This document shows, one piece after another, positions 20,493-59,862 of a stretch of 64,000 nt of DNA. The DNA is from a virus (Duplodnaviria > Caudoviricetes): the IMG/VR virus record IMGVR_UViG_3300021399_000122, positions 1 through 64,000 of that record; one strand, given 5' to 3'. The notes under the pieces are model-generated. The model ran no database searches. It had not been told where the DNA came from and saw only the letters and a list, made by a program, of their open reading frames with translations. A program made the position numbers and the translations under genes. Position 1 is the first letter of the stretch. Each line of letters opens with the position of its first letter.

Positions 20493-20857
20493 TGGCCAAT
20501 CAGGGAACTAAAACACGAATCAATACTGTTGTTGATAATGAACTTATCCGAAACTACTTCAAATCGCTCGTTAACAACTTTTTTAAAATACTCCCCATGC
20601 GAGAGAACGAGGAGAGCTCATTAACAACATACCTTGAGAGTCTGCAGTCGGAACTTGCTGGTGCCGGCAAGTTTATTCCAGAACTCGATAGTGACGCACG
20701 CCTTTTGAGCCTGCTCGCTATCCTTGAGTTTTTGAAGGATAACCCGGACTACCCTGTAAATAAAGTTCGCAGAGAAGTGTTCAAAGCAATTTCAATCTGC
20801 AACAAACTGAAGACTCATTACATGGAGGCTTTGGATGACAGCGTGGAGCAATTATGA
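20492..20857 (+). CDS. Hypothetical neck-region protein
   Basis: TAATG coupling at 20492. Confidence 0.6.
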   Translation: MANQGTKTRINTVVDNELIRNYFKSLVNNFFKILPMRENEESSLTTYLESLQSELAGAGKFIPELDSDARLLSLLAILEFLKDNPDYPVNKVRREVFKAISICNKLKTHYMEALDDSVEQL

Positions 20858-21282
20858 ATCTCGTGCCGCAGTACACGGTACGACGAAAAGAAAGACGGCT
20901 CTGCGTCGCGAAATTCATGACCTTAATAAAAGATTGCCGGACTCCCTGTCCTATCATTCAGTCGAGATCTTCGACTGTTATCATGGGTACAATATCGACG
21001 ACCGAATGATTCAGTCGAAGTGGATGTCCGAGCAAAATGTAGCAATCATAAATTCAGATAACTTAAACGAGAAGTATATCTTCTCGCTTCCCGGTGAAGA
21101 TATTCAGGACGGCTCACTGGTTCATTGGATGGACAACTACTGGCTCGTTACTGAAAGAGATGCCAACACAACCGTGTATACACGTGCTAAATTACTCCAG
21201 TGCAATTTCCTGTTAAAGTGGGTGTCAGGAGATAGTAAGGAGATTATTAGGCAGTGGTGCGTAGTTGAGGACGGCACAAAGT
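20835..21282 (+). CDS. Putative head-closure/neck protein, exon 1
   Basis: Reads ...VVEDGTK plus T and joins exon 2 in frame to give EDGTKYLTGEYEDRN (265 aa in total). Confidence 0.8.
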
Positions 21283-22281
21283 TGAGCGTGTGTAACCGCA
21301 CACGACACAGCTTGGCGTACGGGAAACTGTACGTAAAAACTACTCCCTTAATTGCTGGAAATTCCTTAGAGCATTATTCGCTACAGCGTAAGCATGAAAC
21401 AGCTAAGCGCGAACGCGTGAAAAGAATAATGATTGGACAATCAGCAGCCAAGCTCCGAACAGGAGAAGGTTCAACGATCAGCCGCAGCAGGCGTAGGAAT
21501 AAGCATTCCGAAGTGGGGAGCCCTAAACCACATTTAGTTTGTGGCATGGCGAAGATATGATCTGCGCTCTATAGAGATATAGAGGAGTACAAATATAGTA
21601 CCGATCAGGGTTAGCGACCCTGTTTTTATTATGCAAAAACGGAGGATAAATGGAAAAGAAATGGTTCGTATATATGCATGTTAACAAAGTTAACGGCAAG
21701 AAATACGTTGGTATAACATCAAAGCCAAAGCCAGAACATCGTTGGAATGGCGGTCGCGGCTATCGTGAGAATCCTCATTTCTTTTCTGCCATCCAAGCAT
21801 ATGGGTGGGACGGTTTCGAACATAAAATCTTGTTGCGTAATGTTGATGAGCGAACGGCAAAGATCGCTGAAAGAATGCTAATCAGCATACTGCACACGCA
21901 AGATAGAGAGTTCGGATATAACGCCACCTCTGGCGGTGATGGCACACCAGGATGCCACCCGTCAGATGAAACGAGACAAAAGCTTTCAAGAGCAAGGCGA
22001 AAAGAAAACCTGTCAGACGAAACACTTCGAAGAAGATCTGAAGGACTCAAAGGCCGGCACTTTTCTTCGGAGCACAGGAAGAAAATTGGAGACGGCAACA
22101 GCAAGCAAATCAAAATGTACGCAAAGGACGGTACATTTATAAAGTCTTTTCGCGCCGCAAGAGATGCGGAGGTAGAGCTTGGAGTTTCGCACGCACATAT
22201 ATCTCAATGCTGTAATGGTAAACGCAACACAGCCGGCGGATATATTTGGAAGTTTGCATAATAATATATCGAACATAACGG
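21283..22281 (+). mobile_element. Group I self-splicing intron, 999 nt
   Basis: P AATTGCTGGAAA (21350), Q AATCAGCAGCC (21439), R GTTCAACGATCAG (21469), S AAGATATGATCT (21552). The 5' exon ends in U paired to G in P1, the intron ends in G, and removal restores the frame. Confidence 0.9.
21650..22261 (+). CDS. Intron-encoded GIY-YIG homing endonuclease with NUMOD3/NUMOD1-like DNA-binding motifs
   Basis: FVYMHVNKVNGKKYVG, GYN, SDETRQKLS, ISQCCNGKRNTAGGYIW; RBS GGAGG. Confidence 0.9.
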   Translation: MEKKWFVYMHVNKVNGKKYVGITSKPKPEHRWNGGRGYRENPHFFSAIQAYGWDGFEHKILLRNVDERTAKIAERMLISILHTQDREFGYNATSGGDGTPGCHPSDETRQKLSRARRKENLSDETLRRRSEGLKGRHFSSEHRKKIGDGNSKQIKMYAKDGTFIKSFRAARDAEVELGVSHAHISQCCNGKRNTAGGYIWKFA

Positions 22282-22631
22282 ATCTTACCGGCGAGTATGA
22301 AGATCGTAACTTCATCGTAGCGCGTGGTGACTCAAGAATCGCGATCACCATCGCACGCAATTTAGAGACCGCAAAATTAGGCAGAAGGAACAGATTCCTC
22401 ATTGACGATGAATATGCTCCGGTCAAACTAGCCTATACCCTTTCCAAGCCTCTGAAGTTTACAGGGGTTTACAACAAAGAAGGCGTCTTCAAATGGGTTT
22501 TACAGGAAGTTCAAACTACTGTTGATGATAATCAGGATCTTATGATCGCTGACTATTACAAGTACTTTCCCAAAGAAGACGGCAACGATGATGACGGTGG
22601 TGACACCGGCGGAAAGAAGGTGTGGCTCTAA
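22282..22631 (+). CDS. Putative head-closure/neck protein, exon 2
   Basis: In frame with exon 1 after intron removal; abuts the next gene. Confidence 0.8.
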
Positions 22632-23138
22632 GTGCAGTTAGCTGACTTTTTTGATTATAAAAACCAGTTGATGAAAGACATTCTTACAACCGAAGAGATT
22701 GTCAAGCTTATCAACGGAGATATTGATTTCGCTGACGCGAAGTCGCTGGCGTACACTCAGGTCTTCCCTTACGAGTTTGTCCCCGAGACAACCGAGGAAG
22801 GCAAAACATATATCTGCTTTGATGTCGATGTGTATGAATCTATGAGTTCAACATTCCTCATCCCGCAGTTATACATCTGGGTTTTTACGCACAGGAGTCA
22901 ATTACGTCTACCGCAAGGTGGTGTCCGAGTAGACGAATTGTGTAATGCTATTTGCAAAAAGATTAATGGTAGTCGTTTCTATGGACTCGGCGAATTGAAC
23001 ATTTATATGTGTAAAAGATTCGCACCACAGACTGACTATCAGGGCAAAGTCATTGCGTTCAGAACCAGAGAGGTTAACAGGTTCTACGATCCGAAGAAGA
23101 AGACACCTGTGAACAGAAAGACTGATGACAACTCTTAA
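22632..23138 (+). CDS. Putative tail completion/terminator protein
   Basis: Size and position before the tail tube gene. Confidence 0.5.
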   Translation: MQLADFFDYKNQLMKDILTTEEIVKLINGDIDFADAKSLAYTQVFPYEFVPETTEEGKTYICFDVDVYESMSSTFLIPQLYIWVFTHRSQLRLPQGGVRVDELCNAICKKINGSRFYGLGELNIYMCKRFAPQTDYQGKVIAFRTREVNRFYDPKKKTPVNRKTDDNS

Positions 23139-23850
23139 TTTACTGTATGCAAAGGATCTACGGGTTAATGATAAGATCCATGTGACCATCCCTACTGTCG
23201 GTGACATCATCGACGACGAAGATGGGTACTACGGACTCGTGTCAATGCTCACTGCAATGCCGATTGACTATATGGTGCAATTGGACGAATGGGGGCTCGA
23301 CTTCACTGAGATGACCGCGTTCGATCTTTTTTTAATGTTCTTTCCAGTTATTCAATCCCAAGATACTTCACTCGTATTTGGCGATATGAGTCTTGAGCAT
23401 TTTACAAGAATGACGAACGAAAAGAATGGTCTGCAGGTGCTTGTCGATCCTGTCAATGACATCGTAATCGATCGTGCCGTACACAGTCAGATTCAGAGTG
23501 CCTTAAGAAAGATTCACCACCTTAAGAAAAATAACAAGCGCCCCGGCAACGAGGCTGCCAAAGAATATATGCTCGAGAGAGCACGTGTTAAATTACAGAG
23601 GCGCCGAAAGCGCCAACAGGATTCCATGTTGGAATCGCTCATAGTCGCAATGGTCAACACTGAGCAGTACAAATATGATTACGAAAGAACTTTGGGTCTT
23701 TCTATTTATCAGTTCAATGAGAGTGTTCGACAGATACAGAGAAAGATCGACTATGACAATCGAATGATCGGCGTTTACGCCGGTACAGTTGATACTTCCA
23801 AGGTTGACCCGAGTGACCTCACTTGGATCGGCCCTAGTGATAAAAAATAG
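23125..23850 (+). CDS. Hypothetical tail-module protein
   Basis: Overlapping ORF within the operon. Confidence 0.65.
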   Translation: MTTLNLLYAKDLRVNDKIHVTIPTVGDIIDDEDGYYGLVSMLTAMPIDYMVQLDEWGLDFTEMTAFDLFLMFFPVIQSQDTSLVFGDMSLEHFTRMTNEKNGLQVLVDPVNDIVIDRAVHSQIQSALRKIHHLKKNNKRPGNEAAKEYMLERARVKLQRRRKRQQDSMLESLIVAMVNTEQYKYDYERTLGLSIYQFNESVRQIQRKIDYDNRMIGVYAGTVDTSKVDPSDLTWIGPSDKK

Positions 23851-23867
23851 GAGGAAAATATACTCAA

Positions 23868-24650
23868 ATGAAAGACCTTATTATTACAAGTCTTGAGACA
23901 ATTACAGCCTTCGATCCGGCATCCGGTGCATACTTATTCACCCTCGATGAACTGCAGAATGCATCTATTGCCAACACTGAAGAGAAGGTTGATATCACAG
24001 GTAAGCAGGGTCGTAAGCTCAGCTCCCTGAAGAGAAATAAGGGCGTTACTGTTAGCGGCGCTAACGGTCTGCTCTCCGGCGGTCTGATGGAACTCCAGTC
24101 CGGTGGTAAGTTCGAGAACAAGGCCACAAACGTTATGTGGACTGACTATCTGTCCGTATCCGGTAACAAGGCTACAAGCTCCTTCAAGGCGGTTGGCACA
24201 GCTGGCGCAGAGATCAAAGGTCTGTATGTCAGAAATGCCGATGGCACACTGGGCGAAGCTCTTGTGCAGGATGCTACCGCAGCAACAGGTAAGTTCGCCT
24301 ATGATCCGTCCTCCAAGGAACTGTCCTTCAGCGGTCTGGCAGACGGAACTGAAATCGTAGCTTACTACGAGAGAAAGATCACAGCTGACGTTCTGGTTAA
24401 CGAGTCCGACAAGTATTCCAAGAAGGCTATGCTTTACATCGATGCAATTGGCGAAGACAGATGTGCAAACATCTATCACGTTCAGTTCTTCATCCCGAAA
24501 GCTGACTTCAATGGTGAATATTCAATCGACCTCGGCGATGACCAGGTTGTTCAGAACTTCGAAGCTGAAGCACTCGCTGGTGCTTGTGGTGTCGCAGGTG
24601 TCCTGTGGACATACACAGTCTTCGGAGAAAACGCTGCTGACGCAGAATAA
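23868..24650 (+). CDS. Major tail (tube) protein
   Basis: 260 aa, strong RBS, highly expressed codon bias, beta-rich; synteny. Confidence 0.7.
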   Translation: MKDLIITSLETITAFDPASGAYLFTLDELQNASIANTEEKVDITGKQGRKLSSLKRNKGVTVSGANGLLSGGLMELQSGGKFENKATNVMWTDYLSVSGNKATSSFKAVGTAGAEIKGLYVRNADGTLGEALVQDATAATGKFAYDPSSKELSFSGLADGTEIVAYYERKITADVLVNESDKYSKKAMLYIDAIGEDRCANIYHVQFFIPKADFNGEYSIDLGDDQVVQNFEAEALAGACGVAGVLWTYTVFGENAADAE

Positions 24651-24913
24651 TGGCTTCCGTAATTAAAATCTGCAAGGTCTGTGGTAAGGAGTACGAATAC
24701 TGCCATACCAACAGACCTGCAGGTTTGTTCAGATGGCAAGATGTAGCCTGCTCGCCTGAGTGCGGTGCGGAGTATTTCCGCAGAGTCGCAATTGCGAGAG
24801 GTGAACTCCCCGCTGATGCTGCGGAGGTTACTGAACAGCCAGCTCCCGAAGCTAAGACAGAAAAGAAAGTAACTAGGCGGCGTAAGAGGAAGTCTGAAGC
24901 AGAGGAAGAATAA
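24650..24913 (+). CDS. Small zinc-binding hypothetical protein
   Basis: CKVC...C...CSPEC; TAATG coupling. Confidence 0.7.
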   Translation: MASVIKICKVCGKEYEYCHTNRPAGLFRWQDVACSPECGAEYFRRVAIARGELPADAAEVTEQPAPEAKTEKKVTRRRKRKSEAEEE

Positions 24914-24915
24914 TT

Positions 24916-24952
24916 AAAAGCGTGTCCATTGTAATGATGGCACGCTTTTTTT
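24916..24952 (+). terminator. Intrinsic terminator
   Basis: AAAAGCGTG..CCAT/ATGG.CACGCTTTT followed by a T run. Confidence 0.8.
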
Positions 24953-25008
24953 CACGTCACATACATTATACCTAGACTTATAGAAAATACTTAGGAGAGA
25001 AAAAGAAA

Positions 25009-27204
25009 ATGGTTATTTTAAAGCGAGACGGTGCGAAGCGCGAATTCGACAAGCACAAAATTGAGAATGCGGTTTTAGCCGCCTTTAAAGATGTTGACGG
25101 CGAAGTGACGGACTATGCAAGGTTAAAAGCTAACAACATCGCAACATTTATTGAAGAAGCAATCAACAAGGCCGACCATGAAATCAACGTCGAAGAAATT
25201 CAGGACATGGTCGAGAACGGCCTTATGTCATGCAAGCGGAAGGACGTTGCGCGAGCATATATTATCTATAGAAACGAGCGTAATAAAGCTCGTGGTAATC
25301 TGATTGACCCGGTTATCAAACGAATTATCTCAGGGACAGATGATTACTGGAAGTCTGAGAATTCAAACAAGGACGCCCAGACAGCCACGACGATGCGTGA
25401 CTATATGGCCGGCGCAATCAGTACCGACTTAACAAAGCGTGAGTATCTCCCGAAGGATATTGTCGAGGCTCACGAAAACGGACTGATCCATTTCCATGAC
25501 GCAGACTACTTCCTCCAGCCGATCCATAATTGTGATCTAGTTAATCTGGAAGATATGCTCCAGAATGGCACAGTCATTTCAGGTACTAAGATCGAGAAGC
25601 CGCACAGCTTCGCAACCGCATGCAACATTGCCACACAGATCGTTGCTCAGGTGGCTTCGAGCCAGTACGGCGGGCAGACAATCACACTCGCGCATCTCGC
25701 CCCTTTCGTTGACATTTCTCGTCAGCGCCATAGAAAGATTGTTCGTGAAGAACTGGAGCGTGCAGGTGTGCAGTGCACTTACGATCAGGTGAATAAGATC
25801 GCAGAAGACAGAGTCCGCGCCGAAGTTGCTGATGGTGTGCAGACAATTCAGTATCAGGTAATCACGCTGATGACCACAAACGGACAGGCGCCGTTTGTTA
25901 CTGTGTTCATGTATGTTGACGAGGTGCCTGAAGGCCAGATCAGAGATGATCTTGCAATGATCATTGAAGAGACACTCAGACAGCGCATTCAGGGCGTTAA
26001 GAACGAGAAAGGCGTATGGATCACGCCTGCCTTCCCGAAGCTCATCTATGTGCTTGATGAAGATAACATTCGCGAGGATTCAAAATATTACTATCTCACA
26101 AAGCTTGCAGCAGAATGCACTGCCAAGAGAATGGTTCCCGATTATATCTCCGCAAAGATCATGCGTGAGCTTAAGGGAGATGTCTACACATGCATGGGCT
26201 GCCGGTCATTCCTTACGCCGGACAGATTCACGGATGCCGGAATTGTCAACCCCTCTAACGCCGGCAACTGGGATGGTAAGCACAAATATTACGGGCGTTT
26301 CAATCAGGGTGTTGTCACTCTGAACCTCGTTGACATTGCATGCTCATCTGGCAGAGATATGGAGAAGTTCTGGAAGATTTTTGACGAACGTCTCGATCTT
26401 TGCTATCGCGCACTCATGATTCGTCACAAGCATCTGCGTGGCACTCCGACTACTGTCGCCCCTATCCTGTGGGAACATGGCGCACTTGCAAGACTGCCGA
26501 AGGGCTCTACGATTGATCCCCTTCTCTATAATGGATACTCAACGATCTCCCTCGGCTATGGCGGACTGGCAGAGTGTGTTCGCTATATGCTCGGCGTCAG
26601 CCACACATCTCCCGAAGGCGAAGAGTTCGGCCTGAAGGTCATGCAGTACATGAATGATGCATGTGCGAAGTGGAAAGCTGAGACCAATGTAGACTTCAGC
26701 GTTTACGGAACTCCGATGGAGTCTGTTACATATAAGTTTGCGAAGTGTTTACAGAATCGTTTCGGCATCATCGAGGGTGTCACAGATAAGGACTATATCA
26801 CAAACTCCTATCACATTCATGTTACAGAGCCGATCGACGCATTCAGCAAGCTGACAAAGGAAGCGAAGTTTCAGAAGCTTTCCCCGGGCGGAGCCATCTC
26901 CTATGTAGAAGTCCCGAACATGCAGAACAACATCCCGGCGGTTCTTGCTGTCATGAAGCACATCTATGACAACATCATGTATGCGGAACTGAATACTAAG
27001 AGTGACTACTGCCAGGAATGTGGTTACGACGGAGAAATTCAGATCAAGGGTGAGCCTGGTCATCTTTACTGGGAGTGCCCTAATTGCGGCAACCGCGATC
27101 AGAATAAATTAAATATCGCAAGACGCACATGTGGGTACATTGGTTCTAACTTCTGGAACCAAGGTCGTACGCAGGAAATTAAAGACCGTGTGCTGCACCT
27201 TTGA
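25009..27204 (+). CDS. nrdD: Anaerobic (class III) ribonucleoside-triphosphate reductase
   Basis: N-terminal ATP cone (ILKRDG), IHFHD, MGCRSFL, CxxC...CxxC zinc site, glycyl-radical motif RRTCGYIG. Confidence 0.95.
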   Translation: MVILKRDGAKREFDKHKIENAVLAAFKDVDGEVTDYARLKANNIATFIEEAINKADHEINVEEIQDMVENGLMSCKRKDVARAYIIYRNERNKARGNLIDPVIKRIISGTDDYWKSENSNKDAQTATTMRDYMAGAISTDLTKREYLPKDIVEAHENGLIHFHDADYFLQPIHNCDLVNLEDMLQNGTVISGTKIEKPHSFATACNIATQIVAQVASSQYGGQTITLAHLAPFVDISRQRHRKIVREELERAGVQCTYDQVNKIAEDRVRAEVADGVQTIQYQVITLMTTNGQAPFVTVFMYVDEVPEGQIRDDLAMIIEETLRQRIQGVKNEKGVWITPAFPKLIYVLDEDNIREDSKYYYLTKLAAECTAKRMVPDYISAKIMRELKGDVYTCMGCRSFLTPDRFTDAGIVNPSNAGNWDGKHKYYGRFNQGVVTLNLVDIACSSGRDMEKFWKIFDERLDLCYRALMIRHKHLRGTPTTVAPILWEHGALARLPKGSTIDPLLYNGYSTISLGYGGLAECVRYMLGVSHTSPEGEEFGLKVMQYMNDACAKWKAETNVDFSVYGTPMESVTYKFAKCLQNRFGIIEGVTDKDYITNSYHIHVTEPIDAFSKLTKEAKFQKLSPGGAISYVEVPNMQNNIPAVLAVMKHIYDNIMYAELNTKSDYCQECGYDGEIQIKGEPGHLYWECPNCGNRDQNKLNIARRTCGYIGSNFWNQGRTQEIKDRVLHL

Positions 27205-27242
27205 TTTATATTAGAATGCGCTTTAACAGCGCTTTATAGTAT

Positions 27243-27623
27243 ATGTCTTTTAAATTTTATAATGCGAACCCGGACAACAATCTTGTAATAGATTGTACCG
27301 TCCGGGCGATTTCAAAAGTAACAGGCCAGAGCTGGGAACAATGCTACATTGGCCTAGTTGCCAAGGGGTTTGAGATGCACAACATGCCAAACGCAAATGT
27401 TGTTTGGGGTGCTTACATGCGCGATCTTGGCTATGAGCGGGATTCGATCCCGAACATGTGCCCTGATTGCTACTCGGTAAGAGAGTTTTGCGCAGACAAT
27501 CCCAAAGGCACTTTTTTATTGGCGACCGGAGACCATGTCGTCGCTGTCGTTGACGGCGACTACTTTGACACCTGGGACTCTGGCGACGCCATTCCTATCT
27601 ATTATTGGTTCAAGAAAAAATGA
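27243..27623 (+). CDS. Conserved phage protein, possible papain-like Cys peptidase fold
   Basis: DCTVRAI...HVVAV...YFDTWDS gives Cys-His-Asp order. Confidence 0.65.
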   Translation: MSFKFYNANPDNNLVIDCTVRAISKVTGQSWEQCYIGLVAKGFEMHNMPNANVVWGAYMRDLGYERDSIPNMCPDCYSVREFCADNPKGTFLLATGDHVVAVVDGDYFDTWDSGDAIPIYYWFKKK

Positions 27624-27644
27624 GAACCATAAGTAAGGAGGACT

Positions 27645-30449
27645 ATGAAAGTAACTACACGCGAAATTAAGTTTCGCGACCCTAACGGGCGGATGGTGAG
27701 CTCGCTCGTTATTGGCAATGGATCACTCCATGACGAAGTCGCCGATTATCTCGATAATTCGACGGCGATCGAAGATGCAGTAGCAAGTGCTACCGGAGAA
27801 TGGCTCACCGAAAATATTACACAGCCCACTACACCTGTGGTAGACGCCTCCCTCTCAGTCAGCGGAGCAGCAGCTGATTCCAAAAAAGTCGGAGATGAAA
27901 TCTCCGACTTAAAGCACGATATAGATTCTATGGGCGGAGGCGGTCAGCCAGTGCCAGTCACTCTTGCTTCTGAAATGAGTGATACTGAAGCTATCTATCT
28001 GTATCTCGGCGAAGAAACAGGATACACATACGGTCATGTCTATGCTTATATTGACGAGGAATGGAAAGATACAGGGCTGTACGGCAGAGGACAGAACGGT
28101 TCAGACGGTGCTGATGGCTTTTCTCCGACAGTTTCAATAACAAGCACAGCAACTGGAGCGACAATCTCTGTTACCGACAAAAATGGCACAACAACAGCAA
28201 GCGTATCGAACGGAACAGCAACACAGGCACAGGTTGACGCTTGGCTTGATGCACATCCCGAAGCAACCACAACGGTTGGGGACGGAGCAATTACAAAGGT
28301 AAAACTTGACAGTGATTTGCAGAATGATGTTGATATTGTAAATCTCATTCAGAACGGTTTTACCATTAAGAAGAAGGTTATCGGCAAGGGCGAAATTTTA
28401 CCGATTGAGTTTGATGTGAAATACTTCCCATATACAAATTCAAACGGCTACGAATACATGCGCTTTCTTAATGAGAGCAAAGAAATAATTAAAGTTGCAG
28501 AGGGTGCTTCGTTATCTGCCCCATTTAAAGCGCCACAATATCCGTACAATTCTGATGCAAACTATGCGTTAGCGTACTCAACAAGCGGTTCAAACCTCGC
28601 TTATTATCGTAGTTTTTCTGTAACAGATAACATTGTGACTTGTTATAAAAATGACGGGACACAAGTCAGTACTCTTGAACTCGCCAGTACTCCTGTTTAC
28701 ATTCAGCTTGGTATAGCAAAACTTAGCGGTTCACCGACATTTCTTTGGACTGTTGGAGAAAAGTATTCATATGGAACGCTTTCCGAAGATAGTGTTACGG
28801 TTATCCCTAATGACGAAAATCTCGATGGTTTTTATGATGCGCTTAGAAATGCCGATGTTGTAAGTAATGGTTCCATTACAAAAGCAAAATTTGACTCCGA
28901 ACTTATCACCGATATTTACGGAAGTGCTAAATATAGATTTGACTACGTGAACGTGCAGGAGTCCGATAATGTAGATATTAATTTTTCGGATTATCTTTAT
29001 AAAAACGGACTATATGTTGAAGGTGAAAAATTTGATTTATCAACTGGAGAACCTGTAGTTGATGCTACGCAAAATCGGTCAACCTTAATTCCTGTTATTC
29101 CTTTAACCCAAATTAAAGTAGGTCAGTTAAAAACACTGGTTGTATTTGATTTGGCTTTGAATGTTATTGATTCAGTAACAACAGCGTATGCAAAAGTTGA
29201 TTATACTATTCCGGAAAATGCCGCATATATAGGGATGTATGGACAAAGTGCTAATTTCCCAAGAACAACGACTTCAGTTCATTCAACAGCTGTGAATAAA
29301 CTTGTAAAAGTTGCTAACAAAAAAGCGGACGATCTCCATGTTAATTGGGAAAATGTTGATAACAAAGACTTTTACTCAGAGCTTACGCAAGGAGAAATGT
29401 CAAGGCTCTTGTCATTTAAGTCAATCAAGACAGTCAACCAAATGCGTCATGCTTTCAGAGTTGCATCATTCAATACATATATTGGCAATAGAAATAAGTG
29501 GGTAGAATTAAAAGAGTTCCTTCAGTCTTATGGGATCGACATTATTGGTTTCCAAGAGGTTCACACTCCTCTGAGCGAAAACTCATCGGGGTTGACGTTC
29601 GAACAAGCACTGACTAGTTGGCATTTATCGCAGTTTGCCATCATCGAAACAGAAGACGTTCCGACAAATTGTCGCCCAGTTGCGGCTACATCTGAGTTTG
29701 AAGTTGTGAGCATCGAAGAAACAAAGTATACTCAGCAAGGCGGTTGGGGAAATCGTCACTTCACAAAAACGCAGTTGAAGCTACCACGTTGGAAAGATAA
29801 GAAGGCTTCGGAAAACTTCATGGTTTCTGTATATAACACACAGCTTGAACCGGGTGTAACGGATAATTTATTATCAATAAGATTATCGCAAGTTAATCAG
29901 CTCCTTGCTGAAGTGGCAAGAGACACGAATCCGTTCGTTATCATCTTAGGAGACTTTAATGAGATGGCAACTGACCTCAGTACGATACAAACTATTATAA
30001 ATGCCGGATATACTCCTCAGTTGACCGATACTTCTACACCTACAGCAGGAAGAGGTTTCTATGATTTCATTTTCGTTAATGATCGAATTGAAATTGTTGG
30101 GGATGATGTAATTCCATATGATCTGCACAATAATATATCTGACCACGACCTTGTATTCGCTGATGTCGTATTCGATTATTCAAATCTTATTTCTGTTAAA
30201 ACTTCCTTGCCAAACTGCACACTAAGCGGTGGAACATACTGGTTAGATAGAAGACAGACTGAGCCAGTTGTTTACACTGTGACTGCTGATAGTGGTTATA
30301 CGATCTCTGCCATATCAAGCGGACAGGGCGACAATGATCTAATTTACGAAAACGACGCAGTGGTTATAGACGGTAATACTGTAACTATTACTCCAAATCT
30401 TGTTGTCGGAGATGTGTGGATTAACGTAACTACAACTGCAAATGAATAA
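27645..30449 (+). CDS. Modular virion-associated protein: fibre-type anchor modules plus an endonuclease/exonuclease/phosphatase (EEP) domain
   Basis: DASLSVSGAAAD and WLDAHPEA anchors; EEP motifs SFNT, FQEV, LGDFN, YDFIF, SDH. Confidence 0.75.
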   Translation: MKVTTREIKFRDPNGRMVSSLVIGNGSLHDEVADYLDNSTAIEDAVASATGEWLTENITQPTTPVVDASLSVSGAAADSKKVGDEISDLKHDIDSMGGGGQPVPVTLASEMSDTEAIYLYLGEETGYTYGHVYAYIDEEWKDTGLYGRGQNGSDGADGFSPTVSITSTATGATISVTDKNGTTTASVSNGTATQAQVDAWLDAHPEATTTVGDGAITKVKLDSDLQNDVDIVNLIQNGFTIKKKVIGKGEILPIEFDVKYFPYTNSNGYEYMRFLNESKEIIKVAEGASLSAPFKAPQYPYNSDANYALAYSTSGSNLAYYRSFSVTDNIVTCYKNDGTQVSTLELASTPVYIQLGIAKLSGSPTFLWTVGEKYSYGTLSEDSVTVIPNDENLDGFYDALRNADVVSNGSITKAKFDSELITDIYGSAKYRFDYVNVQESDNVDINFSDYLYKNGLYVEGEKFDLSTGEPVVDATQNRSTLIPVIPLTQIKVGQLKTLVVFDLALNVIDSVTTAYAKVDYTIPENAAYIGMYGQSANFPRTTTSVHSTAVNKLVKVANKKADDLHVNWENVDNKDFYSELTQGEMSRLLSFKSIKTVNQMRHAFRVASFNTYIGNRNKWVELKEFLQSYGIDIIGFQEVHTPLSENSSGLTFEQALTSWHLSQFAIIETEDVPTNCRPVAATSEFEVVSIEETKYTQQGGWGNRHFTKTQLKLPRWKDKKASENFMVSVYNTQLEPGVTDNLLSIRLSQVNQLLAEVARDTNPFVIILGDFNEMATDLSTIQTIINAGYTPQLTDTSTPTAGRGFYDFIFVNDRIEIVGDDVIPYDLHNNISDHDLVFADVVFDYSNLISVKTSLPNCTLSGGTYWLDRRQTEPVVYTVTADSGYTISAISSGQGDNDLIYENDAVVIDGNTVTITPNLVVGDVWINVTTTANE

Positions 30450-30459
30450 GAGGTGACAC

Positions 30460-30519
30460 ATGTCAGATATTAAACCTATCACAAGAGAGGAAGTCCTTAT
30501 GAACTGGTGGGCAGAGTGA
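30460..30519 (+). pseudogene. Remnant of the 5' end of a paralog of the 33289 gene
   Basis: GAGGTGACACATGTCAGATATT...ATCACAAGAGAGGAAGTCCTT is near-identical to 33279-33327; it stops after about 19 codons. Confidence 0.75.
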
Positions 30520-30619
30520 TCAACTGCTGATGCCAGTGTTCTGTATTTATGCTATATTTTGGAGCTTTTAACGCTGACGGACGCCAACAATGTCAATAAA
30601 TAAGCAGCGGCTGTAAATC

Positions 30620-30810
30620 GGCCTCGTAAGAGTGCTGTGCGGTATGCGGAGTACCGCGAGCACGGGATGTATATATGCTCCGCAGTTTGAATTTTATTCG
30701 GGAAATTACGATCGGTTTTAGTAAGCATCGATGGCACGGACGATAATTGACGAGGCCTATATGATCGTAAATGGCGCACAGGTCTAACAGCTAGGCCTAG
30801 CGCCATTTTT
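30620..30810 (+). ncRNA. Candidate structured ncRNA with pseudoknots and a terminal terminator hairpin
   Basis: Several 6-9 bp helices including a loop-downstream pairing (see findings); family not recognised. Confidence 0.5.
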
Positions 30811-30856
30811 ATGCTTACGCGCATAAATCCTGGTGATAGTAAGGAGGGAAAACTTT

Positions 30857-32206
30857 ATGGCAGAAGTGTCCCAAATCAGAGTAAGAGGCACTTTATATGA
30901 TATTAAGGATGCGGTCGCCAGACTTTCGACTGGCGCCCCTGCTACAGCCGCAACTGTCGCAGCAATGACCGACACATCCAAGATTTACGTCTATACCGGT
31001 TCCGAGAGCGGATATACTAAAGGCAACTGGTATTATAACAATGGCTCCTCGTGGGTCAGTGGCGGCGTGTATAACAGCGCCGCAGTCGAAACAGATACAA
31101 GCCTGTCCGTTAGCGGTGCCCCAGCGGACGCAAAGGTTGCTGGCGACGCAATCAATAATATTGTTTACGTCGGTACAGCGGCATCAGATAGTCATACGCA
31201 GGTTCTTGTCTCTCCTAACAGTCAGGAGATTGAACTTGTTACACATGCAGAATTCGACTCGGAGATCTCTGATTTACAAAGCCTTATACGCGGCGGAGGA
31301 ATGAGTGCAGAGTTTAAAGTTGCACTGGAAACGCTTCTTTCAAACGTGGTATATAAAGGCAACGATCCGACAGGTAGAACATATTTGACAGCTTTACACA
31401 ACGCTATGTATCCACCTGCAAATTTGTCAAGAATCACAGCCGTTTATACACAGAGTGGCAATGTTTATGTTACAGATTCACTTGATGTTCTGAAGGCTGA
31501 TCTTGTGGTCACTGCTTTTTATGACAATGGCACTAGCGAAATCATTAGCACTTATGTGTTAAGTGGAACGCTGATAGAAGGAATAACCACAATAACAGTA
31601 ACTTATGGCGGTAAATCAACAACATTCAACGTAACAGTTACCGATCCAACTGCATTACCATCTGAATATCAGAAAGTTGAATGGATTGGTGTTGAAAATT
31701 CAACTACTACTCCAACAGCTTACTTGACCGATGAAGGAGCCATTGGTGAAAATTCAACATTACATGCAGAGTTTAAGCCGTTTAGCTTGGTCGGACAGTA
31801 TGATTCACCTCTTGGCTCTTACCCTTCTGACCTCGAAAACGGACGGGTCTCATTTGAAATTTATTACAACAATTCACTGAACGAGATAAAGTTGGACTCT
31901 CCCCCTTCGACTAAAGTAACGAAACCAACTTTAGATAGTTATGTAATTGGTGACTCTTGGGATAGCATCGACATGTCATTTGTGTCGGGATCAAATCTAC
32001 ATATATTAGTTTACCGCACCAATACGTATGCGTTTAACGGGAAGTTTAAATCATTAACTATCACAGATTCAAACGGAGGTTTGACACACAATTACATTCC
32101 GTGCTACAGAAAGTCCGATTTAGAAATTGGAATGTACGATGTAATAGCGGGTAAATTCCTTACAAACGCAGGAACTGGAAGTCTTGTTAAGGGCAATAAC
32201 GTATGA
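30857..32206 (+). CDS. Modular virion-associated protein: anchors, Ig-like domain and C-terminal beta-sandwich
   Basis: YDIKD and DTSLSVSGAPAD anchors; Ig-like segment LVVTAFYDNG...TVTYGGKSTTFNVTV. Confidence 0.7.
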   Translation: MAEVSQIRVRGTLYDIKDAVARLSTGAPATAATVAAMTDTSKIYVYTGSESGYTKGNWYYNNGSSWVSGGVYNSAAVETDTSLSVSGAPADAKVAGDAINNIVYVGTAASDSHTQVLVSPNSQEIELVTHAEFDSEISDLQSLIRGGGMSAEFKVALETLLSNVVYKGNDPTGRTYLTALHNAMYPPANLSRITAVYTQSGNVYVTDSLDVLKADLVVTAFYDNGTSEIISTYVLSGTLIEGITTITVTYGGKSTTFNVTVTDPTALPSEYQKVEWIGVENSTTTPTAYLTDEGAIGENSTLHAEFKPFSLVGQYDSPLGSYPSDLENGRVSFEIYYNNSLNEIKLDSPPSTKVTKPTLDSYVIGDSWDSIDMSFVSGSNLHILVYRTNTYAFNGKFKSLTITDSNGGLTHNYIPCYRKSDLEIGMYDVIAGKFLTNAGTGSLVKGNNV

Positions 32207-33255
32207 TTTACGATATTGATGGAGTCAAGATTAATCATGCATATGATCTTGATGGAACAGATTTAGCCGAAGCATTCGATATTGATGGTAATTCAATATT
32301 CAGAAGGGGCAAAGCCACAGGCTATTCAATCGAAAATGTTCAGTCCTACTATCAGCCGAGAACGTTAGAGGTAACCGAACAGATAAATGCACTAAGCGAT
32401 GATTGGCAATCATTTATATTTGTCACCGATCCGCATTATCCATCAAATGAAATGCATTCACAGTCAATTGCGCTATATCTGTTAAGCAACTCATCTGCAT
32501 CAATGATTGTTCTTGGAGGCGATTATTGTGAAGGCTCATACAACTCTTCACGGTATAAAACATGGACTGCTGAATTTAGGGAAAGCGAAAATAAACACTA
32601 TATTCATGCACTGTTTGGGAATCACGAACGCTTTGGCGGAGATCAATCAATGCCAACAGCGTTGAACGATATTTATAGTGATTTTCTTTCTGATAAAGTT
32701 GATGATTTGGTTGGCAATCTTGAACAAGACTACTATTATTTTGACGATTCAGTCCGCAAAATAAGATACATGTTTATAAATACATCAGATGGAACGGATG
32801 CATCGACAACGGCAGAGAACGCAACTACCATTTCCGCAACACAGCTTGCTTGGGTTAGAGAGGTTGTGCAGTTGCCAGATTCAACATGGTCGCTTATCGT
32901 ATTGGCACATGTCAACATGATGTACGGAACTGGTTTGTTAAAAAATAAAGCGGATTTGATAGCCGTCATCGAAACCTGCAATGGCTCCATCGTTGGCTAT
33001 ATCTGCGGTCATCAGCACGCTGATAAAATATCGAAAATATCAGATGGCTTTTATGAATTAACACTTTTGTGTGATAGATTTTCTGAAACATATCCCGAAT
33101 CAGAAACAGAGGGAGGACATAGAGAGGCGGGAACGTATACCGAGCAGGCGGTTTCCGTTGTTTCATTTAATACGATAACCAAACAGGTAGTCATGAGAAG
33201 AATCGGTGCAGGTAACGATCAAGTGTTAAGTTATTCGTATGCGGTTGAAAGTTAA
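32203..33255 (+). CDS. Calcineurin-like metallophosphoesterase
   Basis: Motifs TDPH, GGD, GNHE, AH, GHQH. Confidence 0.85.
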   Translation: MIYDIDGVKINHAYDLDGTDLAEAFDIDGNSIFRRGKATGYSIENVQSYYQPRTLEVTEQINALSDDWQSFIFVTDPHYPSNEMHSQSIALYLLSNSSASMIVLGGDYCEGSYNSSRYKTWTAEFRESENKHYIHALFGNHERFGGDQSMPTALNDIYSDFLSDKVDDLVGNLEQDYYYFDDSVRKIRYMFINTSDGTDASTTAENATTISATQLAWVREVVQLPDSTWSLIVLAHVNMMYGTGLLKNKADLIAVIETCNGSIVGYICGHQHADKISKISDGFYELTLLCDRFSETYPESETEGGHREAGTYTEQAVSVVSFNTITKQVVMRRIGAGNDQVLSYSYAVES

Positions 33256-33288
33256 AGGAAACATTAAATCAAAGACAGGAGGTGACAT

Positions 33289-34482
33289 ATGTCAGATATT
33301 GAACAAATCACAAGAGAGGAAGTCCTTCTGAACTCCATTGCAGAAGGAACTGGCTCAGAAATTAAACCGATCACACGGAAAGAAATGTACCTCTCGGCTA
33401 TCGCAGGAGAAACCGAACTCCCTGCCGATATGAAGCCGATCACTAGAGAAGAAATCTTTCTTCAGAAAGTACTGGATAACGGAACTGGTGGAGGCGGTGG
33501 CATCACACCGACAGGAACGATTGATATTACGTCGAATGGCGACCATGATGTAACCGATTATGCTACTGCTCACGTCGCTGTTCCTCAGCCGAGTGGAAGT
33601 GTGAACATTACTCAGAACGGAACACACGATGTTACTGATTTCGCTTCAGCAGAGGTGAGCGTCCCTAATTCCTATACATCCTCAGATGAAGGCAAGGTAG
33701 TTTCAAGCGGAGCATTAGTCAGCCAGTCAAGTCAGACAGTTACCGAAAACGGAACATATGACACAACATTGAAGAATGAGGTTGTTGTTAATGTAAGCGG
33801 AAGCGGTGGCGGCTCAGATGTTCTCAAAGCGATTGTTGAGAGAACTGCTGCTGACATAACATTGCCGAACGGTTTGACAAAAATAGGAAATTACGTATTC
33901 TACGGTTATGCAATTTTACGATCTATAGTATTGCCAAGCAGTTTAACAAGCATTGGACAATATGCATTCAACAATTGCACAGGCTTAACATCTATAACAT
34001 TGCCGAACGGTTTAACAAAAATTGAAACAAGTACATTCCGAGACTGCATAAGCTTGGCATCTATAACAATACCAAGTGGAGTTACAAGCATTGGAACATA
34101 TGCATTCAACAATTGTTCAGGCTTAACATCTATAACATTGCCGAACGGTTTAACAAGTATTGGAAACGACGCATTCAGCAATTGCTCGAGCTTGGCATCT
34201 ATAATAATACCAAGTGGAGTTACAAGCATTGGACAATATACATTCAACGGTTGTAGGAACTTAACGACTTTGGTATTACGCAGAAGTGATGCTGTTTGCG
34301 CTCTTAGTAATAAAAACGCATTAATAAGTACCCCTATTAGAGGTTATAACGGCTTAACAGGCAAAGTTTATGTTCCTTCTGCTTTGATAGAAAGCTATAA
34401 GACGGCTACCAACTGGTCAACAATTTACAATGAAGGACATATGGAATTTGTTGCGATTGAAGGAAGTGAATACGATGATTAA
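33289..34482 (+). CDS. BspA-like leucine-rich repeat protein with PITR N-terminal repeats
   Basis: 23-aa repeats (LTSITLPNGLTSIGxxAFxNC), visible as DNA repeats around 33855-34250. Confidence 0.85.
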   Translation: MSDIEQITREEVLLNSIAEGTGSEIKPITRKEMYLSAIAGETELPADMKPITREEIFLQKVLDNGTGGGGGITPTGTIDITSNGDHDVTDYATAHVAVPQPSGSVNITQNGTHDVTDFASAEVSVPNSYTSSDEGKVVSSGALVSQSSQTVTENGTYDTTLKNEVVVNVSGSGGGSDVLKAIVERTAADITLPNGLTKIGNYVFYGYAILRSIVLPSSLTSIGQYAFNNCTGLTSITLPNGLTKIETSTFRDCISLASITIPSGVTSIGTYAFNNCSGLTSITLPNGLTSIGNDAFSNCSSLASIIIPSGVTSIGQYTFNGCRNLTTLVLRRSDAVCALSNKNALISTPIRGYNGLTGKVYVPSALIESYKTATNWSTIYNEGHMEFVAIEGSEYDD

Positions 34483-34696
34483 AACAGAAAACTTAACGAT
34501 TGGCGGTAAGACCTTCATCCGTACATATTCTGATGCAGGCATGAAAATCCATGGTGGCAGTCCTGCTTCTGATTACGATGAAGCAGTTGATCCTGCTGAA
34601 CTCGGAAGAACCTACACAGAGACAAATATTCCGATCGAAACAGATGCAACCGAAGCAGAGGAAATTCTTTCCATCCTCACAGGAGAATCTGTATGA
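34475..34696 (+). CDS. Small hypothetical protein
   Basis: IRTYSDAG...YDEAVDP...RTYTET; overlaps the LRR gene stop. Confidence 0.65.
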   Translation: MIKTENLTIGGKTFIRTYSDAGMKIHGGSPASDYDEAVDPAELGRTYTETNIPIETDATEAEEILSILTGESV

Positions 34697-35088
34697 TTAC
34701 GATTGAGAAAGCAAGACAGCTTAGAAAGCTGATTGAAAAGGCATCTGCATCACTGGACGATGAACAGGCATTAAACGGTGTTGAACTGTTCCCTAAGTGG
34801 AGCGAATCAGCGAGCTATGCAGTTGGCGACAGAGTTCAGTACGAAGGCACACTGTATAAGTGCTTACAGGCTCATGATGCACAGGCTGATTGGAAGCCTT
34901 CTGAAGCCGTGTCTTTATGGGTTAGGGTTGACGATCCTTCCATTGAATACCCTGCTTGGATTCAGCCTGTAGGAGCACAGGATGCATATCCGAAGGGAGC
35001 AAAGGTCAGCCACCTTGAAAAGCACTGGATCAGCGATGTTGATGGTAACGTGTGGGAGCCGTCAGTTTACGGGTGGTCTGAAGTTTAA
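34693..35088 (+). CDS. CBM5/12 (chitin-binding-like) domain protein
   Basis: WSESASYAVGDRVQYEGTLYKCLQAH and a second AYPKGAKVSH...W repeat. Confidence 0.8.
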   Translation: MITIEKARQLRKLIEKASASLDDEQALNGVELFPKWSESASYAVGDRVQYEGTLYKCLQAHDAQADWKPSEAVSLWVRVDDPSIEYPAWIQPVGAQDAYPKGAKVSHLEKHWISDVDGNVWEPSVYGWSEV

Positions 35089-35114
35089 AGGAAACTTTAA
35101 ATCAGAGAATTACA

Positions 35115-35380
35115 GGGACGCTTCGCCTAGTCAAAGCCGTGATCCGTGGCTGAAGTAACGGATGGAGCGAAGCAAAGGCAGACTGTTGGGAGAAGGCTTG
35201 GTCTGCTATAATTAGCATTGTGTTGCAACTGATGTTAGATACGGCTTTCGGTCACGATTACTAACAGAGAAAGACAAAGGGCGTCTTTGAGACGTCAATG
35301 ACCGAATTTAAAATCTGAGGCCGGATGTGCGCACATCTGGGGCAACCTGCCGCCTGAAGATGCATAGTGCAGTCCTCAGA
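35115..35380 (+). ncRNA. Candidate structured ncRNA (multi-stem, one pseudoknot); strand uncertain
   Basis: At least eight helices in 270 nt of ORF-free sequence (see findings); family not recognised. Confidence 0.45.
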
Positions 35381-35409
35381 AACTTTAAATCACCAACCCA
35401 AAAGACTTT

Positions 35410-35432
35410 GGCCATCATATGATGGCCTTTTT
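35410..35432 (+). terminator. Intrinsic terminator
   Basis: GGCCATCA/TGATGGCC followed by TTTTT. Confidence 0.75.
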
Positions 35433-35511
35433 AATTGTAAACAAATTTGTAGAGCGAGCTTAATCAGCCCGCCCTTTTATTTATTTCTTAAATTTATGAA
35501 AGGAAGTAATT

Positions 35512-36000
35512 ATGGCAAATTTTAACAACCCCTATGTACCCGTACCCGGATGGCCGCAGTCTTCTGCGCTCGCCTACCCCGCTTCGGGTCAGCCCTACCA
35601 GCAGATGTCTTACACGCAGCCGTATCAGGCGCAGTACGCATCGCCTCAGATGTCACAGGCAAATTATGCCTACGCAAACTCTGTTAACAACAAGAATATT
35701 ATCTGGGTCGCCGGTCAGGCTGGCGCTGAAGCGTATCAGATGGAACCGGGCTCGCGGGCTGTTTTGCTCGACTCTAAAGATCAAGTTTTCTACATCAAAG
35801 TGGTTGGCCCGGACGGACGGCCCGAACCACTTATGGCATTTAAGTATGAACCTTTGAACCTGAACATGCAGAATGAGAGTTCACAGGCTTCGCAGGCAGT
35901 TGACACAAGCAACTTCGCCACGAAGGATGATCTGAACCAGATCATGGAATATGTCAAGAAGCTTTCTCAGGGACAGAAAGGATCTAAGACTAATGGCTAA
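35512..36000 (+). CDS. Gln/Pro/Tyr-rich conserved hypothetical protein
   Basis: IIWVAGQAGAEAY...LLDS...FYIK motif; RBS. Confidence 0.75.
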   Translation: MANFNNPYVPVPGWPQSSALAYPASGQPYQQMSYTQPYQAQYASPQMSQANYAYANSVNNKNIIWVAGQAGAEAYQMEPGSRAVLLDSKDQVFYIKVVGPDGRPEPLMAFKYEPLNLNMQNESSQASQAVDTSNFATKDDLNQIMEYVKKLSQGQKGSKTNG

Positions 36001-36223
36001 TCCTCTTTTCGATAAGTTAGGGGGATTGTCATACCCTCAAGTTAACTCGCATCTCGGCGCCTACAACGATTTACTTAATCGCGCCCAACAGATGGCACAA
36101 ACCTTACCTCCTACATTTAATCCACAATCAATTATTCAAAACATGTTAAACTCCCATCAGGTTTCGCAGGATCAGCTCAATCAAGCTATGAGCATTGCGA
36201 ATAAACTGACGGGCAGAGGGTAA
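35993..36223 (+). CDS. Small Gln-rich hypothetical protein
   Basis: MANPLF...NPQSIIQNMLNS...SQDQLNQA; overlaps the upstream stop. Confidence 0.65.
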   Translation: MANPLFDKLGGLSYPQVNSHLGAYNDLLNRAQQMAQTLPPTFNPQSIIQNMLNSHQVSQDQLNQAMSIANKLTGRG

Positions 36224-36270
36224 AAAAGAATTCTATTAAATTAACATAGAAGGAGGAAATTCTTTTTATT

Positions 36271-37050
36271 ATGTCTTTATCATATGACAATGCAAATGGC
36301 ATGGTTATGCCTGTTTCACCGATGCCTTATGGCGGTAACGGCGGTTTTGGTTTCGGCGGCGACGGAGCTTGGTGGCTCATCGTCCTGCTCCTCATCGGTT
36401 GGGGCGGCAACGGATTCGGTAACGGATTCGGCGGCGGAAGCGGTCAGGCTGAAGTCCAGCGTGGCTTCGATCAGTCTGCTGTTATGAACGGTATCTCAGG
36501 CGTAACATCTGCAATCACAAATCTTGGAACAGCGATGAATGCTGGTTTTGCTAACGCAGAGACAGCTGACAACGCTCGTCAGATTGCGAATATGCAGCAG
36601 GCCTTTGCGGCCCAGACAGCCATGACAAGTGGAATGAACACACTTGCCTCTCAGATTTCTAACTGCTGCTGCCAGTCACAGCTTCAGACAGCAAATCTGA
36701 ACTCGACAATTCTCGCAGAGAATTGTGCCGATCGTGCGGCACTTTCTGACGCACTCCGTGATGTTATCACAAGTCAGAACGCAGGCGTCCAGAGAATTCT
36801 CGACACTATGTGCCAGGATAAGATCGATGCTAAGAACGAGAAGATCGCAGACCTCCAGAACCAGCTGGCCATGGCTCAGCTCGCGGCTTCTCAGAACGCA
36901 CAGACAGCTTCTATCATTGCAAACAACGAAGCACAGACAGGTATTCTGGAACGTTATCTCGCTCCGTCACCCGTCCCCGCTTACATCGTTCAGAATCCTA
37001 ACGGATGCGGTAACTATTTCAACGGATACGGTTGCGGATGTAACGCCTAA
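36271..37050 (+). CDS. Gly-rich, single-TM, CCC-containing coiled-coil protein of unknown function
   Basis: WWLIVLLLIGWGG hydrophobic segment, NCCC, C-terminal GCGC; strong RBS. Confidence 0.8.
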   Translation: MSLSYDNANGMVMPVSPMPYGGNGGFGFGGDGAWWLIVLLLIGWGGNGFGNGFGGGSGQAEVQRGFDQSAVMNGISGVTSAITNLGTAMNAGFANAETADNARQIANMQQAFAAQTAMTSGMNTLASQISNCCCQSQLQTANLNSTILAENCADRAALSDALRDVITSQNAGVQRILDTMCQDKIDAKNEKIADLQNQLAMAQLAASQNAQTASIIANNEAQTGILERYLAPSPVPAYIVQNPNGCGNYFNGYGCGCNA

Positions 37051-53934: not shown

Positions 53935-53972
53935 AAAGTGCGTTTTTATTTTTCTTTCGGAAGGAGGAACTC

Positions 53973-59859: not shown

Positions 59860-59862
59860 CTT

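Follow-up and report, generated by a model that had tools for sequence, protein, structure and literature searches.

Payload exchange behind a fixed N-terminal anchor in a hypervariable fibre locus of a metagenomic phage

A 64-kb stretch of metagenomic phage DNA (hereafter the window; the first 64 kb of the 104.8-kb IMG/VR virus record IMGVR_UViG_3300021399_000122) contains an island, at positions 27645-35500, in which enzymatic or binding domains ("payloads") are fused to an N-terminal module (the "anchor"). Comparison with related phages shows that payload exchange behind this fixed anchor is real, recent and sharply delimited: payload-bearing proteins have a near-identical N-terminus and unrelated C-terminal domains, and the break points lie in a short in-frame motif, here called the hinge. 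At their other end, many modules close with a short element that overlaps a stop codon, here called the 3' element. In this report, we describe the modules, their exact break points, the nucleotide conservation of both boundaries and many anchor-payload combinations. The best reading of these data, which we consider moderately probable, is recombination within short conserved boundary sequences, similar to the exchange known from PeSL elements or His boxes. No dedicated recombinase could be tied to the exchange.

A set of about 80 related loci was retrieved through the conserved gene at 36271. In the majority, the left-flank gene (27243-27623, 126 amino acids, phrog_3754) has a homologue that is followed directly by homologues of the genes at 35512, 35951, 36271 and 37065, the first of which is the conserved right-flank gene of the island (35512-36000, 162 amino acids, phrog_21718). 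The island, which we read as an accessory locus that encodes fibre or receptor-binding proteins and is hypervariable, is dispensable. Islands at the same site occur in only two of these loci, L007 and L009; both begin with the N-terminal module seen in the window, at 80% and 69% identity, and continue with different contents. A protein search with residues 1-100 of the first island protein, which has 934 amino acids, yielded two closer relatives, L250 and L251, whose backbones are 95-98% identical to the window. The genes, junctions and elements of the island and its two flanking genes, the ORF at 59863 and the recombinase gene at 10111, all described below, are on the plus strand of the window.

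The comparison with L250 locates the boundaries precisely. L250 is 95-97% identical to the window over 26302-27922 (94.8% up to 27922), over 30565-31269 (95.9%) and from 35379 onward, and the sequence between these shared segments is unrelated. The four resulting edges lie just after the Leu-Lys codons of a first forward junction (F1, where homology with near-identical phages stops at 27915-27923), at a decayed copy of the 3' element (about 30557-30570, on the left edge of a shared segment), at the Asp-Leu-Gln codons of a second forward junction (F2, 31271-31279, with L250 identity ending at 31269-31271) and at the left edge of a further 3' element copy (R4, 35379-35393). R4 consists of the right half of the element only and forms the right border of the island; identity with L251 (97%) also returns exactly at 35379, and L007 has a 3' element copy at the matching position. 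Variable segments in the window and L250 are therefore bounded by a forward junction at the left and a 3' element at the right, twice consecutively. The slot before the last element copy is filled by a non-coding unit of about 290 nucleotides in the window, by an 82-amino-acid DUF6275 gene in L250 and by nothing in L251.

Other relatives also place breaks at forward junctions. Homology with L007 and L009 stops at 27898 and 27915. A third forward junction (F3), in a 67-amino-acid open reading frame (ORF) consisting of an anchor only (59863-60066), is supported by L108, which shares 59698-59966 with the window (88% identity), then diverges and encodes a 688-amino-acid protein on the same N-terminus. 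L108 also contains 35084-35393 at 94% identity, from element to element, in an otherwise unrelated context.

A first-pass annotation, made from the window sequence alone, had proposed that payloads are swapped between phages at copies of a degenerate site, with forward copies in frame at the joints of anchors and payloads and reverse copies at cassette ends. The strings it quoted are all present where it had placed them. The forward copies are indeed in frame (GAC-TTA-AAG at 27906-27914, GAT-TTA-CAA at 31271-31279 and GAT-TTA-AAG at 59947-59955) and sit where homology with L250, L007, L009 and L108 ends, and exchange between phages at these positions, with the N-terminal anchor kept, is borne out by the contig comparisons: alignments do break at the sites. 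The placement of reverse copies at cassette ends stands in part. The copies at 33252 and 35085 overlap TAA stop codons and the copy at 35379 is the island border, whereas the copy at 30611 marks no boundary. It lies within the segment shared with L250, and the true boundary is about 46 nucleotides upstream, at the decayed element.

At the protein level, the forward sites are the final codons of the motif L-[ST]-[VI]-S-G-A-A-A-D-[AS]-K-x-x-G-D-x-[IL]-x-x-L-K, which closes the N-terminal anchor. The instance containing F1 spans 27855-27923 and is where homology with L250, L007 and L009 ends. The anchor of the 934-amino-acid protein (anchor A) recurs, at 82-95% identity over 93-100 residues, in proteins that carry an endonuclease/exonuclease/phosphatase (EEP) domain, an M14 peptidase, a metallophosphoesterase, an SGNH hydrolase or unannotated payloads (P0002-P0009). 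One anchor thus bears at least six different payloads, and among anchor-A proteins divergence begins directly after Leu-Lys.

The anchor-closing motif (SGAAADSK..GD..LK) occurs three times in the genome, and it is present in tail-module genes both here (53916) and in L094, L097, L102 and L150. PHROG profiles labelled "virion structural protein" match residues 25-86 of the protein encoded by the ORF at 30833. From these labels and the occurrence of the motif in tail modules, we infer that the anchors dock their payloads on the virion; PDB sequence searches with the anchors found no homologue. A third gene of this kind, at 53916-55775 in the tail module after a Gp10-like baseplate gene, has an SGAAADAK..GD motif without the Leu-Lys hinge. 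A second type of anchor consists of N-terminal P-I-T-R-x-E repeats on a leucine-rich repeat (LRR) protein (33289-33480 in the window, 30460-30505 in a gene remnant, and in L097, L098 and L178). For modules of this type, homology begins exactly at the ribosome-binding site.

To sample the codons of the hinge, we ran a degenerate scan with the part of the motif upstream of the hinge, which returned 78 distinct homologues. The scan was thus blind to the hinge codons themselves, and its sample of them is unbiased. The hinge Leu is encoded by TTA in 33 and CTA in 10 of 50 cases; for comparison, an invariant Leu located 19 codons before it in these sequences is TTA in 13 cases and never CTA (Fisher p = 1.5e-9 for NTA). 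The sequences are related, which qualifies these counts, although the control columns have the same phylogeny. The Lys that follows is AAG in 29 of 35 sequences, compared with 27 of 46 for a control Lys, and the Ile three codons after this Lys is ATA in 11 of 15 (control, 3 of 29). The synonymous positions of the Leu-Lys codons are therefore constrained, as the first-pass annotation had anticipated.

Such constraint could in principle reflect programmed frameshifting or termination, with T-TTA-AAG acting as a -1 slippery heptamer and with TAA in the +1 frame, to yield an anchor-only product. The heptamer is present at 31271, at 59947 and in several homologues, and anchor-only ORFs exist at 59863 and in L250. 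However, the base before the Leu codon is T in 17, G in 14, C in 5 and A in 1 of 37 sequences, that is, T in only about half, and frameshifting would leave the break points unexplained. No stimulatory structure was seen, although no search aimed at one was made. We consider this explanation highly improbable.

Independent exchanges at the hinge were found in six contig pairs, in which the anchors are 86-100% identical over the 120 nucleotides upstream of the junction and the payloads are unrelated. The change-points in these pairs lie +5 to +18 nucleotides from the Leu codon. In one case, the contig L189 joins the anchor of L150 to a payload of the L102/L097 type. The junctions of independent pairs share up to 21 identical nucleotides with unlike flanks (L097 versus L150), and length variation of the joints was not seen.

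The second boundary, the 3' element, is distinct from the hinge. Three of the sites described as reverse copies (33252, 35085 and 35379) belong to a separate element of 20-22 nucleotides with core TTAAAGGAAACTTTAAATCA, which occurs at the stop codons of module ends in many contigs; the copies at 33252 and 35085 are part of a 30-nucleotide repeat. Conservation falls to background on either side of the element, and the flanks are random beyond it. Both flanks vary between contigs, and nearly every copy abuts a stop codon. The element closes a unit of an anchor gene and one to five further genes in the window, L007, L009, L094, L097, L102 and L150. In L098, where the anchor motif was not detected, it closes an LRR module with a carbohydrate-binding module (CBM). 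A scan of IMG/VR for an exact 17-mer of the element matched about 15 contigs of the sample series to which the relatives of this phage also belong. There are five copies in the L250 island, one in L251 and only one to four in whole records with an island. L091 (G010, a 34.8-kb record, 99% complete) has an exact copy that follows a stop codon and precedes the next ribosome-binding site; G010 has no ORF in common with the window phage at E<1e-5.

The two halves of the 3' element differ in character. The left half is a stop codon and Shine-Dalgarno junction that is used before ATG in an array of small genes at 67-68 kb of the genome, and it also resembles the junction between 27243-type and 35512-type genes in island-free relatives. 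The right half is conserved over 10 nucleotides and has no start codon or obvious signal. An intrinsic terminator follows the element only at 35379 (hairpin at 35410-35427, after R4) and at the matching copies in L250, L251, L007 and L094. The stop codon, the Shine-Dalgarno-like AAAGGA and, in some copies, the subsequent terminator suggest that the element probably has a role in expression. As more specific functions, a general late promoter was rejected, given that there are one to five copies per genome or locus and that some stand directly before a terminator, and so was an ATC-initiated ORF after the element, as the reading frames are short and inconsistent among copies.

The small-gene array lies beyond the window, on the minus strand at 66900-69100 of the genome, and its tiny genes are joined by a stop codon, AAAGGAAAC, WTT and ATG. 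The end of a 90-amino-acid ORF in this array, comprising its final codons and stop codon, is overlapped by one complete copy of the 3' element (67154-67171). Upstream of the array on the same strand is a gene for a 420-amino-acid tyrosine recombinase (70768-72030).

The proposal that hinge and 3' element are one degenerate site in two orientations did not hold. An 11-mer consensus, allowing at most two mismatches, occurs 24 times in the window, and 24.6 occurrences are expected. The island alone has 11, where 3.6 would be expected; this local excess is post hoc, however, because the consensus was derived from the island itself, and five of the 11 are inside genes without a boundary role. When the hinge consensus is compared with the 3' element in the two orientations, 12.9 and 13.1 of 22 positions match; this tie arises because the shared TTAAAG/TTTAAA core is nearly palindromic. 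Nor is it supported that the two sequences work as a pair. Eight of 10 anchor-bearing contigs lack the 3' element (at most two mismatches), including both members of the swapped pairs L172/L183 and L193/L214; weak matches are present in L178 and L211, each a single member of two other pairs. The hinge and the 3' element are separable boundaries.

Module borders also occur where neither sequence is found. They lie at 33279, 30505, 31645 (the end of an immunoglobulin (Ig)-like domain) and about 28316, and coincide with ordinary ribosome-binding sites or the ends of domains. The exchange mechanism thus does not look exclusive to the two boundary sequences. The last of these borders is a second-level break, at 28300-28320, relative to protein P0004: the 934-amino-acid protein matches it at 74% identity as far as residue 224, and past K-L-D-S-D-L the two are unrelated. 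Leu at this border (residue ~224) is encoded by TTG, and the DNA signature of the hinge is therefore absent there.

These observations bear on whether a dedicated machinery performs the exchange. In such a system, a phage recombinase or nuclease would recognize the TTAAAG-containing hinge and 3' element and would swap, insert or excise payloads in frame, in an integron-like manner or in the manner of recombinase-mediated cassette exchange (RMCE), with payloads staying fused to the resident virion anchor. The double succession of hinge and element in the comparison of window and L250 would fit such a system; in addition, both boundaries are conserved as nucleotides around a common core, and about half of the 3' element copies contain a 6-4-6 dyad. 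The left arm of this dyad, however, is not conserved, several borders lack both sequences, and hinge swaps are seen in contigs without the 3' element, among them G017, which is 97% complete.

The genome encodes three tyrosine recombinases, of which the one nearest the island (10111-11136) had been put forward as the agent of exchange. Homologues of it are present in two other full-length island-bearing relatives and absent from three island-free ones, but this co-occurrence is confounded by relatedness, as the three island-free phages are much more distant (n=3 versus 3). The candidate is a generic member of its family, encoded 17 kb from the island between phosphoesterase-like and HU-like genes and just upstream of a terminase gene (12654); nothing tying it to the island was found, and G008, a complete 40-kb phage, has the element and lacks a homologue. 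G010 also has the element and, as noted, shares no gene with the window phage. Across the complete genomes, no gene was found that is common to all element-bearing ones and absent from element-free ones. The three recombinases score 32-43 bits against integron-integrase models (cut-offs of 265-435 bits) and 19-25 bits against tyrosine-invertase models (cut-offs of about 221 bits), and Xer cut-offs are also far from reached. No serine recombinase (PF00239) was detected in the genome. Taken together, these results make a dedicated exchange system, including its integron-like or RMCE-like form, an improbable explanation in our view.

Searches for the hallmarks of other diversifying systems were negative. 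A comparison of the island with the genome for a template/variable repeat pair, as in diversity-generating retroelements, recovered only the LRR repeats, the gene remnant and the anchor motif. The opposite strand encodes no alternative C-termini: every gene of the island is on the plus strand, and minus-strand ORFs are short and inside plus-strand genes. No long inverted repeats were found, no IntI-type integrase adjoins the cassette array, and no attC-like site of about 57-141 nucleotides is present, the element being about 22 nucleotides long. The earlier exclusion of shufflons and integrons was therefore correct, given the missing serine recombinase and repeat pair and the low integrase scores.

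At the other extreme, illegitimate recombination might occur everywhere, with selection keeping those products that join at domain borders or gene ends. The 3' element would then be an expression signal, and the hinge codons would have a translational function; slow NTA codons that pause the ribosome between domains are one example. This would fit the observations that the left half of the element is an ordinary stop, Shine-Dalgarno and start junction, as in the 67-68 kb array and much as in island-free relatives, that the hinge favours TTA, CTA and ATA, each of which is an NTA codon, and that several borders are at plain ribosome-binding sites or domain ends. It does not account well for junctions of independent pairs that share up to 21 identical nucleotides between differing flanks, for joints without length variation, for the 10 conserved nucleotides of the right half of the element, or for a 310-nucleotide unit that has moved between phages exactly from element to element. 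We regard selection acting alone, with or without ribosome pausing, as rather unlikely.

We therefore return to recombination within the conserved boundary sequences, the reading given at the outset. The exchange unit would comprise a conserved N-terminal anchor, a hinge ending in Leu-Lys, a payload that is either an enzyme or a binding domain (helper genes accompany it in some cases) and a 20-22-nucleotide element with a stop codon. Co-infecting phages or prophages would recombine within the two short boundary sequences and thereby generate new combinations. The in-frame hinge would keep an incoming payload fused to the anchor, and the 3' element would end the module and separate it from its neighbours, such that units could be gained, lost or replaced from element to element. 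Crossovers could proceed by general or relaxed homologous recombination, with the boundary patches serving as homology and without a dedicated enzyme. Nucleotide conservation might persist because only lineages that retain the patches can exchange, and the 3' element probably serves expression as well.

Several observations weigh against this reading. A dedicated site-specific system would also be expected to give break points this tightly clustered and third codon positions this strongly constrained, and homology patches of 14-22 nucleotides are short for ordinary homologous recombination. The TTAAAG core shared by hinge and 3' element is not needed for general recombination. The element occurs in only one to five copies per genome or locus, and no sigma-70-like promoter was found at its copies, which speaks against the suggested role in expression. 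Also, the point at which identity returns in close relatives may mark the edge of non-orthologous content and not a crossover.

The genes of the island illustrate the modularity. The domain assignments of the first-pass annotation for the five payloads (EEP, Ig, phosphoesterase, LRR and CBM) are all correct, as is its observation that the island is richer in A and T than the backbone (GC content of 41.9%, compared with 45.8% in the rest of the window). The anchor-A gene (27645-30449) encodes the 934-amino-acid protein with a C-terminal EEP payload (Pfam PF03372). It is followed by a remnant (30450-30505) in which an LRR-type gene is reduced to its ribosome-binding site and opening 15 codons. 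This remnant, already recognized in the first pass, is genuine and matches 33279-33334 at 91% identity and L178 at 94.8%. Because it is nearer to L178 than to the window's own LRR gene, it derives from the arrangement of another phage.

The second fibre gene (anchor B, 30857-32206) carries a Big_3 Ig-like domain. The ORF call begins at 30833 and gives a 457-amino-acid protein, and an ATG with a ribosome-binding site is present at 30857; the Ig module shared with L007 begins at about 31301. A calcineurin-like metallophosphoesterase gene (32203-33255), whose start overlaps the preceding stop codon, ends in the 3' element copy R2 (33246-33275), which contains its TAA. The next module comprises a BspA-type LRR gene with an N-terminal triple PITR-E repeat (33289-34482, with module homology starting from the ribosome-binding site at 33279), an 88-amino-acid ORF (34430-34696) and a gene for a CBM5/12 carbohydrate-binding protein (34693-35088). 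Homologues of the last gene are followed by the same 3' element in L098, L106 and L148. The corresponding copy in the window, R3 (35079-35108), takes in the stop codon (TAA) of the CBM gene; L098 is homologous up to 35104, and L108 from 35084.

The non-coding unit of about 290 nucleotides between R3 and R4 (35105-35378) corresponds to 11450-11720 of L108, where it is in another context, and is 94% identical to it, with the first 240 nucleotides identical. A hairpin at ~35321-35340 differs between these two copies by changes on both sides that preserve pairing. An exact 26-mer from the unit matched only L108, and a search for distant homologues with 35084-35440 returned only a 31-nucleotide chance match. 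A second non-coding segment, at 30565-30832 upstream of the anchor-B gene, is conserved in L250 (96%) and has a terminator-like hairpin at its end (about 30774-30812). Rfam searches of 30400-35600, at gathering thresholds and at E<=1, gave no match. Predicted folds have z-scores of -1.0 (35089-35440) and -0.4 (30506-30832) relative to shuffled sequences; since neither folds better than shuffles, we make no claim of structured RNAs.

The source phage is an SPbeta-like metagenomic phage, one of a group of phages of roughly 100 kb. In the closest relatives, SPbeta-type tail genes (YomU, V, W and X) lie just upstream of nrdD, the gene for anaerobic ribonucleotide reductase, and this annotation can be transferred because these relatives are 96% identical to the window over 22472-26300. 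A megablast search of 25000-37000 against GenBank phages gave no match. The nrdD gene is intact in the window (25009-27204) and is split by an ORF for a NUMOD4/HNH_3 homing endonuclease in L250 (2538-5561) and L251 (2523-5595); identity with L250 skips from 26300 to 26302 across about 830 nucleotides of extra DNA. A group I intron (Rfam RF00028; its 56 bits exceed the gathering score) is located at 21205-21584 in the structural gene region, where it overlaps the end of the ORF at 20835-21560 and lies upstream of the ORF at 21650-22261.

The host range of phages and their degradation of surface polymers depend on the distal parts of fibres and spikes. The locus shows, at single-nucleotide resolution, one lineage refitting a fixed anchor with phosphoesterases, esterases, peptidases, and lectin-like and LRR modules. 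Both cassette borders are conserved as DNA, beyond the protein level, which provides a concrete sequence rule for locating and delimiting exchangeable receptor-binding modules in metagenomic phages. The locus also offers a testable system for the question of whether mosaicism arises from short homology patches and selection alone or from dedicated machinery.

Several known systems share features with this locus. In the Gin and Cin systems of phages Mu and P1 and in Rci shufflons, a dedicated invertase flips a segment that carries alternative C-termini on the opposite strand. Common to these and the present locus is an in-frame site at the joint between the constant N-terminal and variable C-terminal parts of a fibre gene; here, however, neither a serine invertase nor a pair of inverted repeats is present, and the opposite strand holds no alternative parts. 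Integrons hold arrays of cassettes, each ending in a recombination element, and single units are gained or lost. Units of the island likewise each end in an element and are gained or lost singly between elements, but there is no IntI-type integrase or attC-like structured site, and cassettes are joined in frame to a resident gene.

Domain swapping at conserved motifs in the tail fibres of T-even phages was reportedly described by Tetart and colleagues in 1998. A paper on gp38 describes swapping of adhesin and tail-fibre domains between conserved motifs, namely His boxes or glycine-rich motifs (PMC3157838). The likeness is that short in-frame conserved segments flank variable receptor-binding parts and serve as crossover points. 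The locus described here differs in its motif (SGAAADSK..GD..LK), in belonging to another phage group, in having payloads that are mostly enzymes and in that constraint on synonymous sites was measured. In the tailspike cassettes of phages SP6, K1-5 and K1E, work by Scholl and colleagues reportedly found both the N-terminal anchor and the intergenic sequence downstream to be conserved. Modularity of tailspikes in E. coli phages is also treated in a further report (PMC10408124). These tailspikes resemble the present proteins in having a particle-binding N-terminus that is fixed, enzymatic C-termini that are exchangeable and a conserved sequence after the tail gene. They belong to podoviruses of Gram-negative hosts, and the likeness drawn here is one of arrangement.

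The hyperplastic regions of T4-type phages contain PeSL, a short conserved intergenic motif that recurs at the edges of non-essential genes (Arbiol et al. 2010, PMC2839356; Comeau et al. 2014, PMC4122927). Where close relatives differ by an insertion, deletion or replacement, this motif bounds the change, and units running from motif to motif can move (PMC2839356, PMC4122927). PeSL combines a sigma-70-like early promoter with a stem-loop terminator, whereas the 3' element is ~22 nucleotides long, contains a stop codon and a Shine-Dalgarno-like stretch and has no promoter consensus; moreover, it is paired here with an in-frame junction inside a structural gene. Like PeSL, however, the 3' element is a short conserved motif at the borders of variable genes that bounds insertions and deletions between close relatives. 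The island is best described as a case, and a very sharp one, of phage mosaicism of a kind already known.

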